NCBI RefSeq assembly: GCF_024521635.1
Contig: NW_026250410.1
Location: 682,001 to 746,000 of the forward strand
From: Tricharina praecox
Lineage: Eukaryota
Reading direction: 5' to 3'
DNA: 64,000 bases
Shown here: piece by piece, positions 5,176 through 46,900 of the stretch
Position numbering within the stretch: position 1 is the stretch's first letter
How the letters are laid out: each line of letters opens with the position of its first letter
Program-made: the position numbers and the translations under genes
The notes under the pieces: model-generated
Database searches by the model: none
What the model saw: the letters and a program-made list of their open reading frames with translations, nothing else
Told to the model about the DNA's origin: nothing

Positions 5176-6013
5176 ATGACGACCCCTACTACTACTACCA
5201 CGACGACGATGGGACATGCCTGTTTTTTCTACGGTGAAACAACCCTCCCCCCCTCCTCCACCCGCTGAGCTCTCGTGCTAACATTTCGCCGACGTTCAGG
5301 CACATTGATGAGCTTCAAGGTACGTCCATTTACCACATCCCATTTACCACATCCCAGCCCAATTCATCCCACCACCCCACTAACCCCCTCCCAGGTTCTC
5401 AGCCGAGTCCTCTACGGCACTCCCACGCCGGAAGCGTGGCAGAGCCAGGGCCTCCACATCCGCCCGGCGATCCTTCACGACTACTGCCGGCACCAAGTGC
5501 GCTTCGCAGACTACCCGGGGATCGTGGCAGAGCCCGGAAAGTGCGTGCGCGGCACGTATGTAACCGGAATCACCGACATGGAGCTGTGGCGGCTCGACGC
5601 TTTCGAAGGCGGCGAGTATAGGCGCGAGGTGGTGAGGGTTAGGTTGCTGCGGGGGGAGGGGGAGGAGGGGATGGAGGAGATGGGGGAGAGGGAGTGCGCG
5701 ACTTACGTCTATAAAGATGAGAACAGGCTCGTTAAGGAGGAGTGGGATTTTGCGGAGTTTGTGAGGGAGAAGCTCCATCGTTGGGTTGGCGACGAGAAGG
5801 AATACTCTGGTCAGTCGACGTCCGGGTCTGACTCTGGTGACGAGGAGGAGGACGGCGACGAGGATGGTGACGAGTGATGTAGCTAACTGTGCCCTGTTGT
5901 GCGCTCCAGAAGTTGACAAGCTCGATCCGCTCGGTGGCCGTTGGTGGGGAAATGGCTTCGCTGAGGGAGAGGAGAAATCGGAAGTCGACGAGAAGTTGAA
6001 GGCGGCGGTATAA
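5176..6013 (+). CDS. AIG2-like / gamma-glutamylcyclotransferase family protein (4 exons)
   Basis: ATG 5176. The FFY|GTLM motif is split by intron 5234-5299 and a 20-nt exon 5300-5319. Exon 3 has YCRHQVRFADYPGI..VRGTYV..LDAFEGGEYRR. Intron 5810-5909 (GTCAGT..GCTAAC..CAG); last exon ends ...EKLKAAV*. Confidence 0.88.
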
Positions 6014-6645
6014 TGGCGCTCAACGCATTGTTACATATGGCTAAATCTTTGACTAGCGAAATTGATGGGTTTGGTGGTTTTCTGTGCATTTCGCTTACTG
6101 GAATAGTGAGCTCCTGATAAAATATTCGCTGACACTGCACGGGTTATCACTCGGTTGGAACCACAACAAGTAAAGTGGTCATAGCAAATAATGCTGCCGT
6201 TATAGATGCTGTGCTGCATATAAAAAGAGGAATGTCTTGATCTCATCGACCTGCTAGGCTGCTACAAGTGCGTCAATTATGTAGCTATGGAACCAGGCGG
6301 CAAAGCAGGAAGCTCGAGTATTTGGTGCTCTACAGCATTAGTCTGGAGGCTGGCATTGTGTGGCTGAAAATCATGAACCATTTAGCAACGGCGTCCACAT
6401 CCACCAGTCGTACATCAAGCATTGGCGAAGGCTTACATACTAGTATGTAGCTTGGCCCAACGGAGATATTACGTAGTCACTGCGAACCGTAGCCCGTTGA
6501 CATCAAGCTACCTAGTGTGTAGTGTGATGCTTGACCGGGTAGCGAGCTTCCCTCAGCAACCCGGAAGTCTCATTGCCCCCACCTACGACATCCCACCTTC
6601 TTCCGCATCTGACTTACCAATCACCACCGACAAAACACCACAACC

Positions 6646-39200: not shown

Positions 39201-40776
39201 ATACGGTCCCATTCCCGGTGTGGAGACGGATTACGCTGCGCAGACGATTGTATGGAATGTGGTCAGTGAGGATCAGCGGTTCCTAGAGAAGGCGCCTCTT
39301 CCCATCGAAGAAGAGTTCCCGGAGGGTGCCAGAGCGTTCTTCCTCGGGGAGTTCAACTACGGAAGGCCTTTGGAGGTCATCAGGCACAACGACAATCGCA
39401 CCGACATCTGGATATCTACAATGGTAACTACCGTGCGCACATTTTGTATCGACTAGACTGTACTAACTTGTGAACAGCAAGCAAAAGAGCCGGATTTTGC
39501 CAAGCAGTTTATTCAACGGGCTGAGCAGTCTACTCCCTACGTGGCCTCTTACCGTTTGGCTCGCCAACTCGGCCTGAATCCGTTGGTGCTGAGTAAAATC
39601 ACATCCAGCTTCCAGGTCCTCGTTGGCGACCAACGCGTGAACCTGGGTCTCAACCTGAAATTTGAGGCCAAGAAGCTGAAAGTGCTTGGCTACTCCCGCA
39701 AGAATCAGGGCGGATGGGAGTTTTCGAACAAAGCCGTTGCCCTCATTGAGGATTATATGAAGAGTTTTCCACAATTCTTCACAGCGCTCATGAGGAACCC
39801 GCACGGTGACCTCTACAAAGACACCGATTTCTACGATCCCAGCGAAAGCAAGCAGAAGATCAACGAGATCAAGGACTGGTTAAAGACCTTTGACAGCAAG
39901 GGCTTCGAGAAGGTACCTCTGGAGGCCATGCAGCTCGATGGAGATGTCGTCATGCAAATCGAGAAAGCTATGGATGCATTCGACAGTGGTTCTCGGGTCC
40001 CTAAGAGGGTCAAGAACGTTCCTCGCAAAGCACTCCTCAAGCCGGTGGATGCCGAACATCGACTGGCGCATCAGCGTTTCGACCTGGGCGACAGGGTCGT
40101 CTACGTGCAAGACTCGGGCAAAGTTCCAATTGCCTCGCGCGGAACAGTCATTGGCCTCACTCGAACGTCCAGGATCACTCTCATCGATGTCGTCTGGGAT
40201 TTCACCTTCATGAGCGGAACTACCCTAGGCAATAGGTGCTCTCCATTCAGGGGCATGACGGTCCCGGTTTCCTCGGTGCTTAACCTTACATCTCGCCAAC
40301 TGATAGCTGGCACGAAAGCGAGCAACCAGTATAAGCCTGTGCCGCCGCCAGCTCCGTTGACGAGCAGTTACGCCGACGCAACAATGGGACCCCCCTCTGG
40401 CTCACCCTCGCCGCAGCCAGCCAACGGCTTCCGTGGAGGTCGTGGAGGTGGGCGTGGACGCGGCGGCTACGATCAGCAGCAGCAGCCCGGAAGAGGTGGT
40501 TTCGTCCCGCGAGGCCCGACGGTGCTCAGTCGCCGTGGCGGACCCCCCGGCGCACCGACCATTCTCCCACGCGGCGGAGCCCAGGGTGTTCAGGGAATTC
40601 AGCACATGCCAGACGGGCAGCAGGGGGCCAATACGTCTAATACTGGCCAGTACCAAGCTGTACCACCACCGGCCATCTTTCATCGTGGAAGGGGAGGATC
40701 GAGAGGCGGACGCGGCGGAAGAGGTGGAAGAGGCGGTGGACCCGGAAGGTTCTCCACCACTGGCGATCGCCAGTAA
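36272..40776 (+). CDS. XRN1: 5'-3' exoribonuclease 1 (multi-exon)
   Basis: MGVPKFFRWISERYP..FDNLY|LDMNGIIH, AIDGVAPRAKMNQQRARRF, FDSNCITPG, PGEGEHKIMEYIR, YGLDADLIMLGL, VGNDFLP; Xrn1-specific C-terminal domains (NLGLNLKF, FDLGDRVVYV) and an RGG tail. Confidence 0.97.
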
Positions 40777-42203
40777 CTGCCATTACTGTCGCGGCAGCAG
40801 CAGTTGAACCTCGTTGGATATCTAGAGTCAATAGTATGGCTCTAGTTATCTCTAGAGGTTCTTCTCAGCTAGGCGAAAGAGGCGTAAGGGTGAAACATGG
40901 GGGGTGATCTGGCGGAAGATGTCTTGTGGTACTCTACTTGCTTTTTACGATCGCTACCTAATACTTTGTAAACTTTGTTTAGATAGTGATGGGTGGCTAT
41001 GATATGGAGGTTTTGTAGCACTTTGTTGTATTTCCCAGGAGCTCTTTGTGTTGTGTCTGGTCACCTGTTGCTTATGTTCTTGCTCATGGTTACTGGTGCA
41101 TCGGTGTTTATCCGGGAGTGGATGGAAGGGTGTAGATTTTACTGAGTAGGTGTCGGTACGGAATATTGTGGGCGTACTCGGGGTCGAGGAGGTGGATACG
41201 GATATGAGTAATGATGTGTCAATTCGTCAAGATGTGGCGAGACGAGAATTGATCATTACCTAGCACCCTCTGCCAGTGCGGAACTATCTCCAATCATCAA
41301 AGTGACCACTTTAAGGCTCTGGATTCATGCGAAGTCATCTAGTAAAATCACATGATGCCGTCGCTGGCACGGTTGAGCGCGTCTTCACCGTTCTGCGGCG
41401 GACATCGAGGTGTGGGGGAGAAGGCACCCCCCCTCCACCGAGTGTCCGTGCGTTCGAACTGGGCCGCTCAGTATCTGTTGGTCCGGCACGGCTGTGGAAA
41501 AGGAACATTGTGCATTAGCGCAATGGCGAAGTCACTGTGCCACAGAATTGAGCCACGACTGAACCCGACTCTAAACTCCTTCTGAGTGGTTGTGGCACGC
41601 ACTGATGCACAACACACACTTTCCTCCTTTTGTGCCGGAGCAAGGGATAGTGTCCTTGGCAGAGAAACCTCACCTCTTCAGTTGTGCGAGGCCTCTGTAT
41701 GCGGGAGACCTCGGTGAACGCGCCAACCAACCATCATGTCTGCCAAACGCGCTCGAAACTCACTCGACGAAGTCGCCGGAAACCCCCGGAAGAAGATCAA
41801 GGACGCGCCGGGAACAACTGCGCCTGCCGAAACGTTCACGCCGTTAACGCATCCGAGACCAGAGCATCTGGGTGTACCACGAGTCCCCCAGGGGACAGAG
41901 TTATCACCGCTAGCCATCTTCTCACTCTACTGGGACGATGAGATTCTCAAACAGATCGTTGTGGCGACCAACCTCTGCGCGGAGTTTAAGCGGCGTCGAA
42001 CTTCAGCCCCCCGGCGAGTATGGAAGCCATTGACGATTGTCGAGTTGAAGTGGTTTCTCGGCGCGACTATCTTTATGGGTGTGGTCAAGGCACCGCAACG
42101 TGTCGACTACTGGGACCGCCGGGGATCGGTTACGCTGCCAAATAAATCGTTGTCGCTCGTCAGGTACGAACAGATCAAGCGGTTTCTTCACATCTCCATG
42201 CCA

Positions 42204-42482
42204 CCGACGGACGAGCTCAATGCACCGGCGGATGAGCTCGGTGCACAGGCGGATGAGCTTAATGCACAGGCGGATGAGCTCAATGCACAGGCGGATGAGC
42301 TCGGTGCACAGGCGGACGAGCTCAATGCACAGGCGGATGAGCTCGGTGCACAGGCGGACGAGCTCGATGAATCGGCGGACGAGCTCGATACACCGGCGGA
42401 CGAGTTGTATGCACCGGCGGACGAGCTCGATGAATCGGCGGATGAGCTCAATACACCGGCGGACGAGCTGGATGCACCGGCG
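42204..42482 (+). repeat. In-frame 21-bp minisatellite x13 encoding heptads (x-A-D-E-L-x-x)
   Basis: Unit like CAGGCGGATGAGCTCAATGCA; protein PTDELNA PADELGA QADELNA ... PADELDA. Confidence 0.95.
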
Positions 42483-43830
42483 GGGAAGGCAAGTTGGACG
42501 GAGGAAATCGAGCCACTCTCCTCTCACCTCCGTCAACGATCTAAGGAGTTGTATCTCCCCGGCACACACGTAGCGACGGAGGAGATGATGGTATTATTCA
42601 AGGGGCGCAGCGTTCACACCTGTCGTTTGCCGAATAAACCGATACGTGTTGGCTACAAGGTCCTGGCTATTTGTGACGCGGGCTACACCCTCGACTGGCT
42701 ATACTCATCTCGCACCCAGTCGATTGCCGGTCTCGAGCAGCCTATCCCAGAGCTGACATCCACTGGTTCAGCGATCTTTCAGCTTTGCCGTAGCCTTGAA
42801 GCTCCTGGGGACCATCGTTACATCGTCTATGTGGATAAAGCTTTCACTACGGTCCCCTTGCTGCGATTGCTACGTAGCCACGAAATTGGTGCATGTGGCA
42901 CTTCCCGTCTTCATTCTGCAGAGCTGCCAGTTGAGATGAAGTCGGACTTGAAGAAGGCTCAGAACAGCCTTGATGGGTTGGTAGTGAAGCCACATGAGCA
43001 TGGATCTACAGATGATGTCCTTTGTATTCGATGGGAGGATGGCAAAAATGTCCGCTTCCTTACAACAGTCCATCCGTGGAACGAGGTCACACTCAAGCTA
43101 CGCCGCAGGCCGCTAGCAACCAGCACCAATGCTGCTGCTATCCACCGAGTCTTCGGAGACTCGGAACGCAAGATGCTGAATATCCCAACAGTTGTGGACG
43201 ATTACATCTTCAACCGCATGAACGGCGCGGACTTAGCGTACCAGCGCCGAGCTGCCCACACAACCCACCAGCGAAGCCTTCAAAGTTGGTTTTCGTTATT
43301 CTTCTTCCTCCTCGATATCTCTCTAGTCAACTCGCATATCCTCATGCAGTTGGCTTGCAAAGAAGCATCCCTTCAAGCCATCGAGGCTGGATGCAATCCA
43401 GCCAATGCGCCTTTCCGCCGCACGATGGATGCCGCCCGCTTCCGTAGTGAGCTTGCCGGTGCGCTCATGAGTATACCCAGTGAGCCTGTCGAGGCGCCCA
43501 CGCGTATACCAAAGCCGCGGAAGCCGGAGCCCAAGCGAGTGCGTTTGCGTTGCCGTTCTAGGAAGACAGACCGTATTGTATTTTCTAAGTCCAGAGATCT
43601 CGTGTGGGAACACGCGAAGGCAGCGGCGTATAGTGGTGGCACAAGGAACCACAAGCTGGTCAAAATGGAGAAGAAGCGTGCGTGTGTGGTCTGTAGATAT
43701 GGGTTTAAAAAGACCAAAACTGGCCGGCAAACTCCAAAGATGGCGTTGTTTGAGTGTACTTCATGTAAACCTCCTATGGCGCTGTGTGCACCTGAGGGGG
43801 GAGAGTGTTGGGTGAAGTGGCATGACGGGT

Positions 43831-43956
43831 GTGAGGTTGTTGGGGAGGGAGCGCTCGCTGCTGCGGAATCGGGTGAGGTTGTTGAGGGGGGAGCGCTCGC
43901 TGCTGCGGAACCGAGTGAGGTTGTTGGAGAGGGGGCGCTCGCTGCTGCGAATCCGG
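43831..43956 (+). repeat. In-frame 42-bp repeat x3 encoding EVVGEGALAAAESG-like units
   Basis: GTGAGGTTGTT starts at 43831, 43873 and 43915. Confidence 0.93.
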
Positions 43957-46900
43957 CTGTGGGATGATCTGCATGCTTTTGATATCACTCAATGTATCGG
44001 TCAGGAAGCGAAGGCGCGAATGCACAATAGGTATACTTAATGTACAATACCTTTTCCACTGTTTTGCCAGACCAAGGGATAGTAAGTTCGCTGCGATACC
44101 CTCGATACCCTCGCTGGTGGGGCTCGCTGGACATCCAACACCTCCTCCCAACACAGTTCGTGATTGCTGGGAGGGCCCAGGCTATTTTTCGTGCCGCGGT
44201 GGCGGAGCCGGCGTATATCGCAACGAGGTCCCTCCCGTCCTCTTGTAATCCTCCCCCAAGTAATTCGGGAAGGGGTTGATGGCGACGATGGCCTTGTGCT
44301 CGCCGGTATACCTTCGGACGATGGGCTACATGGAACCTACATACGTCAGGTACTTAGTTAAGACCTCCCGGATATATAGCTCCAGCGCAGGGCCCAAAGT
44401 CTACGCGTGTTTCGGTCAAGGTGTTGGTTGGTTGGTCAGGAGATTCTTCCAGCACAATAGCAGCGGCCTCGTAATTCCAGCTTCAATGCCTACCAGCAGC
44501 ATCGATCGAAGCGGCGCCGTGAACTCGGGGTTTCGGTATGTGCGATTTCGGCCCTGCTTGTCCCACTCCCACTTGACTTGCTGTCCGTCGGAAACTTGGA
44601 ACGCACTTCGCTGGCTCCCTCGATCCCTTTCCTCGAGTGTTGTGGTGTGCTTGGAAGTTGCTGGTTGACTGATCAATCATCTGCTGCAAGCGGAGACCGG
44701 AGTGCGTAAACCGAAGGCGTAAGAAAATCGAAATCCTTCTCTTCCTTTGGTGGTTTCGGGCGGCTTGGAATTTGACTCACGTAAGTTCTTGGCTCACATC
44801 GGAGACCCAACGGTCTATCTGGCGGCGGAATCGAAAGTGAACAATGGAGGTGATTCGTGGAGGATGATTCGGTGATCATCTCGGAGCCGACGGTGTGTAC
44901 GAAAAACAACTGGGGTTAAGTAGAGTACGGAGCTGGCGTAAGTAGTATGTACTGTGTAGAGCCTTGCATCTTTTCTCTTGGTAGATTCAGACTCCGGAGA
45001 CCATCGGTGGTATGTCAGTACTATAGTCAAGGGGAGGTAAAATAAATGGTAGCAATACAATATCCTGAATTACTACGTGCCGGGCCGGAATATGGTACCG
45101 CTATGCAGGCGCTATAACAGAGATAATCCGATACGTACAGTCAGGAATATGTATTGTAGGTGTACTACACATCGTCGAGAAACAGTATGATGACCGAAGA
45201 AAGCGCAACGTATCGTCAAAAGCACGGCCATGCCGCTACGCATATCGAAGAAAACAAAGTATTGGGTGCCATATCGATTTTTAGCCAAGCATATCGATAT
45301 GTACGTGTATTCGGATACACTCGCACGTCTTCCCGCAACGTAGGTGTGATATGTGGCTGTATGTAACTGAGCCATATCAATATGTAGTGTCAGCGTAGTA
45401 CCAGACATGTAGTCTGTTCAGAATATGCATCAGTGCTGGCTATGCGTTGCACTGCCGTATCTGCTCAGCGGTACGCCACGTAAATAAAACTATATGCTTT
45501 CTGACGCAATGTTTCAACTTTTGGAGTGTATTACTCACTTCGTCACGTAGGTATTATAGCGAAAATATGCAAACGCTATCATATTTCGCCAGAAATATCG
45601 TATTACTCCCAGTTTTTTACCCCCTCCCCTCACTATACAGTATGTACCGCCTCATGAACCCGTACCGCTAGAAGATTCGGAGAATTACTTGCCGTTAAGA
45701 GTATGTGCCTAACCGAGTGATGTCTAGTGACGCCAATATGAGTGATAGCCCATGAACCGATCCTGCGCCGGACGGCGCACGGCACACAGCCCACGTTTCC
45801 CCAGCCACCCAGCCACCCGCATCCTTGCCCGCTTCCCCAACCCTACATAGTGGTGGTGGTGTGAACCATGTATTAAGTGCTCCAAGCATGTGGTTGGGAG
45901 GTTGGAAGGTTGGAGGCTGGGAGTTGGGAGTTGGGTATGTATGGATGGATGGCTGGTGTTTCATGTAGACTATGGCACAGTGCGGCACGGTATGTATTGT
46001 ACAAGACATATGTATGAGGTATGTATGTATGATATGTACCTGCATCCCGTGCTCGACCCGTGCTCGACAGCCGGAACGGGAGGCTGCGAGCGCGGCACAG
46101 GTGTTGGTACCGGTGTTGGTTGCGGGTACGGGTGAGACGGTAACGTTACTATAGAGTAGGTACATGGAGAGAATCTACTCTATAGTAATAAGTACTTAAT
46201 GGATGTGTGCCGACATGGCATGGAAGAAAGCGTTGGTACTATCTGACGTCGCTCTCGCTGCGGCTTCCGGGTGCGGATCTACTCTATATTCTCTCCTCTA
46301 CTCTATATACCAACATACAGGAGGGAGTGATGGACTCGGTGAGAGTGCGGTATAAGTACGGGTCCGTACTCCGTACGACGACGGGATGAACGCTCTTACC
46401 GAGGTAGGGAGTGCGCGGGAACTGAGTACATATGCAAGCCACGTAGGTAGAGTATGCAAGCTACCTATCAGCGATGATATGAGGATATGAGGATATGATA
46501 CATATGAGGACCCGAGAAGTCGCCCTTCGACTTCGTGATTCCCCTCCACCCCCTGAGTCAGCCGACCAAGTCCGGTGGGTTCGGTGGGTTCGGTGGGATT
46601 CAAACTATGGGGCGTTACTGGGATCAAGATTCCGAGGGGGTTGGCACTGGTGGGTGAACACTGGACATATGCATGTCGCCAATATGTAGGAAGAAAAGGA
46701 GATTAGCACGGTACGTATCTTTCCTTTTTTCCTTCTTTTCCTTCCTTTTTCCGCAGCCTCTCCGTGCGCAATGGGACTGTCGACTCGATACGGCACCGGT
46801 AACCATCAGATGGTGGAGACCACACACACTCTCTCTCGCTCTCTGCCGTGTCTGACGGCGGAGGCGGCGGCGGCGGCGACCGCTTCAGCAGTGCATCACG

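Follow-up and report, generated by a model that had tools for sequence, protein, structure and literature searches.

Does the transposase-like reading frame that lies behind XRN1 in Tricharina praecox encode a protein kept by its host, or is it a piece of a decaying transposon? The locus is part of a 64,000-nucleotide stretch (the window; positions 682001-746000 of contig NW_026250410.1, here C83) of the 38.4-Mb host assembly (G000; contigs are labelled C and loci L). Judged by short GT..AG introns and by its genes, the stretch comes from a fungus, probably a filamentous ascomycete. From the sequence alone, an initial annotation had proposed a domesticated piggyBac transposase with altered catalytic motifs. 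Judging from its decayed terminal inverted repeats (TIRs) and altered active site, we read the element as an immobile relic, and we give early-stage domestication, that is a host-kept, non-catalytic protein predicted to bind DNA, about an even chance. The case for domestication is weaker than was initially scored, and the firmer new result concerns the ends of the element, which belongs to a fungal piggyBac clade without TTAA termini.

The open reading frame (ORF) runs from ATG to TGA (41736-43967, forward strand) without interruption over 743 aa, just as it had been described. Its protein matches DDE_Tnp_1_7 (Pfam, E 1.2e-51) and can be aligned with the Trichoplusia ni piggyBac transposase. 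The nearest structures to its predicted model (mean predicted local distance difference test, pLDDT, of 70) are T. ni piggyBac and piggyBat (PDB 6x67, 9c0f; Foldseek E 2e-18 and 1e-20). An exact look-up of the protein returned no identical entry from the collection searched. By Pfam, motifs and fold, the window ORF is a piggyBac-type RNase H-like transposase. The C-terminal Cys-rich domain, a mark of the piggyBac superfamily (piggyBac-like elements, PBLE), is present and complete as claimed: all of the eight conserved Cys/His columns are kept, and zf-Tnp_2 scores 26.6 bits against a Pfam cut-off of 24. About 140 of the 743 residues derive from in-frame tandem repeats (21-nt x13.8, 33-nt x2 and 42-nt x3). 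Pfam coiled-coil matches at residues 160-250 were rejected as artefacts of these repeats.

To assess the active site, conservation was scored in an alignment of the ORF protein with 164 homologues, the coverage of which differs by position. The three motifs read as initially given, ATEEMM (GAG at 42579-81), VDKAFT and MNGADLAYQ with a one-residue insertion in front, where GGVDxxD has been described for piggyBac (Keith et al., PMC2533014). Of the proposed triad substitutions, only the first stands in the alignment with T. ni. Residue 282, at the position of T. ni D268, is D in 126 of the 128 covering homologues, N in two and E in none, and it is E in the window copy. The second and third aspartates, D367 (T. 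ni D346) and D499 (D447 position), are retained, and only their neighbours have changed: K368 stands where N (T. ni N347) is conserved in 153/159 homologues, and Y502 occupies the D450 position, at which 137 homologues have D in 111 cases and N in 19, with Y outside the four commonest residues. Near the triad, the one-residue insertion lies at 491-492, and V498 is replaced by A. The catalytic set D268-D346-D447(-D450) hence reads E-D-D-Y, unlike that of PBLE. Altogether, the window copy departs at 8 of the 68 columns that are conserved to at least 80%; five of these departures lie in or beside the catalytic motifs and none affects a zinc ligand. D-D-D is intact in 28 of 30 TIR-bearing relatives (motif list). 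The relative L156 (L156:2519-3387) also has E at the first triad position, yet its TIRs match at 30/30. According to the text of Keith et al., an aspartate is specifically required at D268; one assay of D268E in their Table 2 gives 0, but the other gives 9.96E-03 (against 3.15E-03 for the positive control), which means that this substitution is not cleanly null (PMC2533014). From these residue changes, catalytic impairment of the window copy is likely.

The element extends from 41475 (after GTAT) to 44078 (before ATAG) and is 2.6 kb long. The initial annotation had reported no visible TIRs, which proved wrong: decayed inverted arms are found at 41467-41503/44050-44086 and 41507-41521/44014-44028, and they can be aligned both to the TIRs of the nearest intact relative and to those of MITEs (miniature inverted-repeat transposable elements) in the same genome. 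The terminal pair matches at 22/30 nt, and both remnants start with C, as is usual for PBLE. Between the left and right remnants (A and C, Table 1) 12 of 50 positions differ, and between A and a third, inverted copy (B), which ends at 41646, 10 of 42. Some of this divergence between the TIRs may reflect an asymmetry of long standing, since the TIR pairs of the MITEs match only at 21-30 of 30 ungapped positions. The A-B unit resembles a MITE of 172 bp that is fused to the element at its 5' end. The MITEs L053, L076 and L063 (on C12, C29 and C17) likewise consist of a left end and an inverted left end. Had the original left end survived upstream of A, the window could have served as an empty-site test; this idea is unsupported, as a shuffle test detected no such end (p 0.90 and 0.63).

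The flanks are GTAT and ATAG instead of a 4-bp TTAA duplication. The TTAA noted at 41311 between XRN1 and the ORF is present, but TTAAs occur downstream too (44037, 44358 and 44916). They were rejected as element ends because they do not flank TIRs, and their positions are irrelevant because the clade does not use TTAA. The TIRs had been overlooked in a search that relied on this motif, and the argument drawn from missing TIRs and TTAA fails.

To characterize the termini of the clade, 80 related metagenome loci were fetched, and the 59 with enough flank were scanned for inverted repeats. Thirty loci with a TIR pair around the transposase were kept by eye and, together with seven two-ended MITEs of the host genome, gave 37 elements; L103, which repeats the insertion of L093, was dropped, as were L114, L131, L133 and those loci that lack a TIR pair. 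The loci stem from a small number of related metagenomes, and not every one counts as independent. Although the rule for picking ends does not require AT, 36 of the 37 elements read AT/C...G/AT (slashes marking the element ends), and the remaining one, L053, was mis-picked by the rule and reads so by eye. TAT adjoins 69 of the 74 ends, with the preceding base free (NTAT/ATAN). In contrast, TTAA is found at 0/74 ends and a 3- or 4-bp direct repeat in 0/37 elements. The terminal motif is CCC at 56 ends and CTCC at 17. TIRs match at 26-30 of 30 positions in 27/30 transposase-bearing relatives and are about 41-76 nt long in these relatives.

A TA reading fits 33/37 elements, whereas L105, L112 and L132 keep AT and not TA. 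Two pairs of paralogous empty sites (L093 versus L146, L111 versus L145) differ by two extra bases at the junction, as predicted by an AT duplication in TATA. This support is moderate because the alignments are only 79-84% identical, and L118 compared with an internal copy speaks against AT, as it has four extra bases, which is the TA-type reading. Empty-site searches from two host MITE flanks yielded one paralogue with an alignment uninformative at the junction, and the other flank was unique. Taken together, a 2-bp duplication of AT within TATA is probably the best reading of the clade's termini; the sequence comparison fits equally an AT duplication or blunt insertion of an element ending in T...A. 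Bouallegue et al. list rare ATAG, TTAT, ATAT and ATAA sites, which they ascribe to mutation, and mention a TIR of 50 bp in Paracoccidioides (PMC5381638), and Muszewska et al. counted 5,965 fungal PiggyBac transposase copies (PMC5751038). In the accessible parts of the searchable literature, a scope outside which Repbase and Dfam lie, non-TTAA ends have been glimpsed before but not tied together. Subgroups of piggyBac go by the names piggyBacA and piggyBacX, and the clade may already be catalogued.

Copy counts in the host genome are lower bounds derived from scored candidates. Among these candidates there is no near-identical copy of the window element. The best paralogue is broken and 74-81% identical at the DNA level, which makes the element single-copy in the sense of Bouallegue et al. 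(PMC5381638), and all other piggyBac-like loci found have stops or are fragments. A DNA search returned a broken copy on C35 and two 320-bp MITEs that share the 3' end of the window element and whose TIRs align with 44011-44084. The window and C35 copies are sisters, with a pairwise dS of 0.37 compared to 1.05 to the intact relative L084. In the C35 sister (L034, C35:269800-271600) a single frame persists over some 500 codons, across several indels and one large deletion that are in frame, although it contains nine stops; for some time, selection on the frame may have acted on this copy itself. With a MITE as query, 39 matches were obtained, which fall on about twelve places. No recent burst is seen, because the closest pair is only 92% identical, and judged by its sequences the MITE family is old. 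One MITE end on C13 adjoins a copy of its own end, and the MITE on C39 lies inside a unit of about 6 kb with inverted repeats of about 870 bp (79% identical; L039:238-1089 and 5443-6298), possibly another DNA transposon. An isolated stretch of 30 nt (L041:4859-4888; C83:314358-314387) is 100% identical to window positions 43967-43996 with no TIR seen around it, a surprisingly exact match given the age of the other copies.

Four of the eight listed sequencing runs were examined, one of DNA (X1) and three from three studies (X3, X4 and X5). The latter skip two XRN1 introns (GT..AG) and, being spliced there, hold RNA. Contigs give cover, not strand, exact ends or level. Those over the ORF are separate from the XRN1 contigs (X3: 41677-44033; X4: 41710-44020; X5: 41704-43842, in pieces) and are all broken at the 21-nt repeat. 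They begin at 41677-41710 and, in X3 and X4, stop at 44020-44033 within the right TIR remnant. Depth over the ORF is 84-164 in X3 and X4. For the bins 44107-46242 it is 0-3 in X3 and 0 in X4 and X5, so that DNA carry-over does not account for the ORF cover. According to this RNA contig cover, found in all three spliced runs, the transposase gene is transcribed as its own unit. Loose contig ends at 43645-43685 (X3, X4) belong to another expressed sequence similar to the zinc-finger region, and there may be a second piggyBac-related transcript in this organism. Contigs of X1 span both element junctions with four differences, all outside the ORF and none in the covered ORF parts. The insertion is thus common to a second strain, which is so close that X1 is uninformative on selection. 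The runs that contain 53-69% of the words might have been taken as lacking the element, a reading that was rejected as three of them are RNA.

Selection was analyzed over 377 codons shared with the relatives. The branch ratio of nonsynonymous to synonymous substitution rates (dN/dS) is 0.51 (0.38-0.77) for the window copy, 0.62 (0.42-0.83) for the C35 sister and 0.11 for the intact L084. Stated with the same intervals, the estimates for the window copy and the sister are also given as 0.53 and 0.59. In the C35 copy, at least nine stops precede the large deletion and the late frameshift, and 378 shared codons hold five stops, while the window copy has none at a similar branch length. In a neutral simulation, the probability of no stop, P(no stop), falls from about 0.01 at 0.08 substitutions per site to 0.001-0.002 at 0.12. 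Read as an active phase followed by neutral decay, the branch gives 0.07-0.09 substitutions per site and a P(no stop) of 0.009-0.032 (bootstrap uncertainty); the TIR clock (0.12-0.15 per arm) gives 0.001-0.002. Among 47 conserved columns in the shared region, three are changed only in the window copy and six only in C35. No signature resembling repeat-induced point mutation (RIP) is seen, as C-to-T changes are spread over all contexts.

The history that we prefer combines these observations. Long ago, a copy of a fungal piggyBac-like transposon (41475-44078) inserted 0.7 kb downstream of XRN1, and its mobility apparently ended with the decay of its TIRs. Insertion into TATA appears to leave AT on each side throughout the clade, a pattern that is observed as such, with the duplication as its presumed cause. 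In the transposase gene, the frame and the zinc finger have persisted, while residues of the active site have drifted, and the host would keep the protein under weak selection as a non-cutting binder of TIR-like DNA. Such a protein would fold and dimerise like piggyBac and bind TIR-like DNA without cutting it, at first perhaps repressing its own family in a dominant-negative manner or regulating locally. Autoregulation would be possible through TIR B, which lies just upstream of where the RNA begins. CSB-PGBD3 and SETMAR bind their MITEs, and by analogy the window protein might bind MITE ends, a possibility weakened by the MITE TIR sequence, which differs from that of the window copy.

Immobility and probable catalytic impairment, as initially proposed, are supported by the decayed TIRs, the D-to-E change and the lack of a near-identical copy among the scored candidates. 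For a host-retained DNA-binding factor the balance is about even: survival of the frame favours it, but several points weigh against it. The dN/dS is below 1 but not distinguishable from that of the dead sister (overlapping intervals; Fisher p 0.41), so that amino-acid change does not show selection after immobilisation, and at about 0.5 it exceeds the Ka/Ks of 0.12-0.43 of known PGBD groups (Bouallegue et al., PMC5381638). The three-versus-six comparison and the clustering of changes in motifs are small, post hoc counts. The in-frame repeats say little, because indels of C35 are also mostly in frame. Furthermore, no orthologue was found in the searches made, which at the insertion site covered strains of the same species only; the best relative is 72% identical and has an intact triad and perfect TIRs. 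A scan for intact ORFs also enriches lucky survivors, and this bias and the low prior of domestication enter our judgement. The copy might instead be a relic that evolves neutrally, an old insertion that has no host function and, as it decays, has by luck been spared a stop. Its RNA would come from a promoter in open chromatin, either its own or one derived from a MITE, and would be stable because the frame is open. We hold this for a serious possibility, somewhat short of an even chance. Its dN/dS fits an active phase plus neutral decay, like that of the sister, six to eight conserved residues are lost, the repeat residues were tolerated, and no RIP-like bias was present to force stops. The low P(no stop), lower still if the TIR clock is right, the complete set of zinc ligands and the clear RNA cover in three studies argue against it.

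It is improbable that the protein still works, fully or in part, as a transposase that moves itself or acts in trans on MITEs, or that it is a domesticated nuclease of the PiggyMac kind. Two triad aspartates are kept, the remaining change is conservative and not cleanly null in Table 2 of Keith et al. (PMC2533014), L156 combines the same E with intact TIRs, and the predicted fold is retained. However, four more motif changes (N368K, the insertion at 491-492, V498A and D502Y), the requirement for an aspartate concluded by the same authors, the loss of the terminal CCC from the left TIR and the divergence of even the closest MITE pair oppose activity. Least probable is a functional link to XRN1, as a read-through exon or a fusion of the CSB-PGBD3 type. 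XRN1 does lie upstream as annotated, on the same strand, with the ORF about 1 kb downstream of its stop. But its contigs end at 41164-41246, no joint to ORF contigs occurs in X3, X4 or X5 (contigs drop rare forms), and none of the 80 related metagenome loci, in which the suggested synteny was checked, lies beside XRN1. We thus found no tie between the two. On the evidence for orthology and selection we do not file the ORF as a domesticated PGBD gene, nor, because TTAA and the first aspartate fail, as a canonical PBLE. That both hold jointly, a host-retained, catalytically dead fungal piggyBac protein and a clade that duplicates AT by cutting TATA with a 2-nt stagger, is a tentative proposal, and we consider it rather doubtful.

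Table 1. Coordinates of the transposon copy, its parts and the adjoining host gene in the window.
Feature	Position	Strand	Basis
XRN1, last coding part (context; own RNA contig)	39757..40776	+	Pfam, RNA contigs
Left flank GTAT; AT (41473-41474) is the putative duplicated target	41471..41474	+	clade pattern NTAT
TIR remnant A at the left end, where the terminal CCC is now CTG	41475..41523	+	
Second TIR copy B, inverted, then ATAG	41598..41646	-	
5' untranslated remnant, homologous to sister copy, L084 and MITEs	41647..41735	+	
Transposase ORF, piggyBac-type, 743 aa	41736..43967	+	Pfam, alignment, fold
In-frame 21-nt tandem repeat, 13.8 copies, acidic heptad, before catalytic domain; missing in 13/13 aligned relatives	42194..42483	+	
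E282, first triad position (T. ni D268)	42579..42581	+	alignments
D367 kept (T. ni D346) and K368 in place of conserved N	42834..42839	+	
D499 kept (D447 position) and Y502 in place of D450-position aspartate	43230..43241	+	
In-frame duplication, 33 nt	43446..43510	+	
Cys-rich zinc-finger domain, 8/8 conserved Cys/His retained	43650..43823	+	homologue alignment, Pfam
In-frame 42-nt tandem repeat, 3 copies, lengthens C-terminus	43831..43953	+	
Right TIR remnant C with internal duplication of about 18 nt	44011..44078	-	
Right flank ATAG; AT is the putative duplicated target	44079..44082	+	

Two further features lie near the element. Positions 45020-45650 hold a separate dispersed repeat with inverted ends of about 35 nt, which is MITE-like and occurs at no fewer than six other places of the host genome at 70-88% identity, and the 3' untranslated region of XRN1 contains an imperfect 25-nt palindrome (40806-40861).

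In comparison to known systems, the window element shares with T. ni piggyBac and piggyBat the fold, the motif order, TIRs starting with C and the C-terminal Cys-rich domain. It differs in the flanks of its clade (NTAT/ATAN), in E, K and Y at the D268, N347 and D450 positions of the window copy and in the length of the TIRs of its relatives, which is 14 +/- 2 in piggyBac (PMC5381638). Ti_tr1 of Tuber indicum is likewise a fungal DDE_Tnp_1_7 element, with 52-bp TIRs and without TTAA (Belfiori et al., 2013, PMC3864998). Compared by description only, Ti_tr1 has an intact triad and three exons; its target-site duplication (TSD) was called TA and its classification left open by the authors, whereas our clade data favour AT in TATA. 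The Epichloe MITEs EFT-3m/Toru, EFT-27m and EFT-28m also have an AT TSD and CTCC or CCC termini, and they were filed under superfamily unknown with no parent element (Fleetwood et al., 2011, PMC3227409). By this description of their termini, not by sequence, they may belong with the clade of the window element. A 2-bp AT duplication, or the formally equivalent blunt insertion, is also known from ISL2EU (AT TSD) and Spy (no TSD), which however encode unrelated PIF/Harbinger-type transposases (PMC4122938); the window protein is piggyBac by Pfam and fold. PGBD1-5, KOBUTA, NeoPGBD, PiggyMac and TPB2 are likewise single intact piggyBac-derived ORFs with catalytic residues partly lost, and PGBD2 and PGBD3 keep the zinc finger. 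They differ in being animal or ciliate genes, orthologous across species, with a Ka/Ks of 0.09-0.43 (PMC5381638), from the window copy with its higher dN/dS and still visible TIR remnants. In the literature found, no host-retained piggyBac-derived DNA-binding protein is described in fungi, and the available text of Muszewska et al. names no domesticated fungal PiggyBac (PMC5751038).

If the protein is indeed host-retained, piggyBac domestication would extend from animals and ciliates to fungi, and it would have been caught at an early stage, at which TIR remnants are still visible and a dead sister can serve for comparison. The AT-flanked clade challenges TTAA as the defining mark of the superfamily and accounts for the way such elements are overlooked or wrongly filed when fungal genomes are annotated. 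If true, the AT geometry would be unlike the TTAA hairpin mechanism and would explain the orphan Epichloe MITEs with their AT TSD as well as the unclassified truffle element Ti_tr1. Intact elements (for example L084, L085 and L089) are suited for tests of how the piggyBac fold sets stagger and target, which is relevant to genome-engineering tools.

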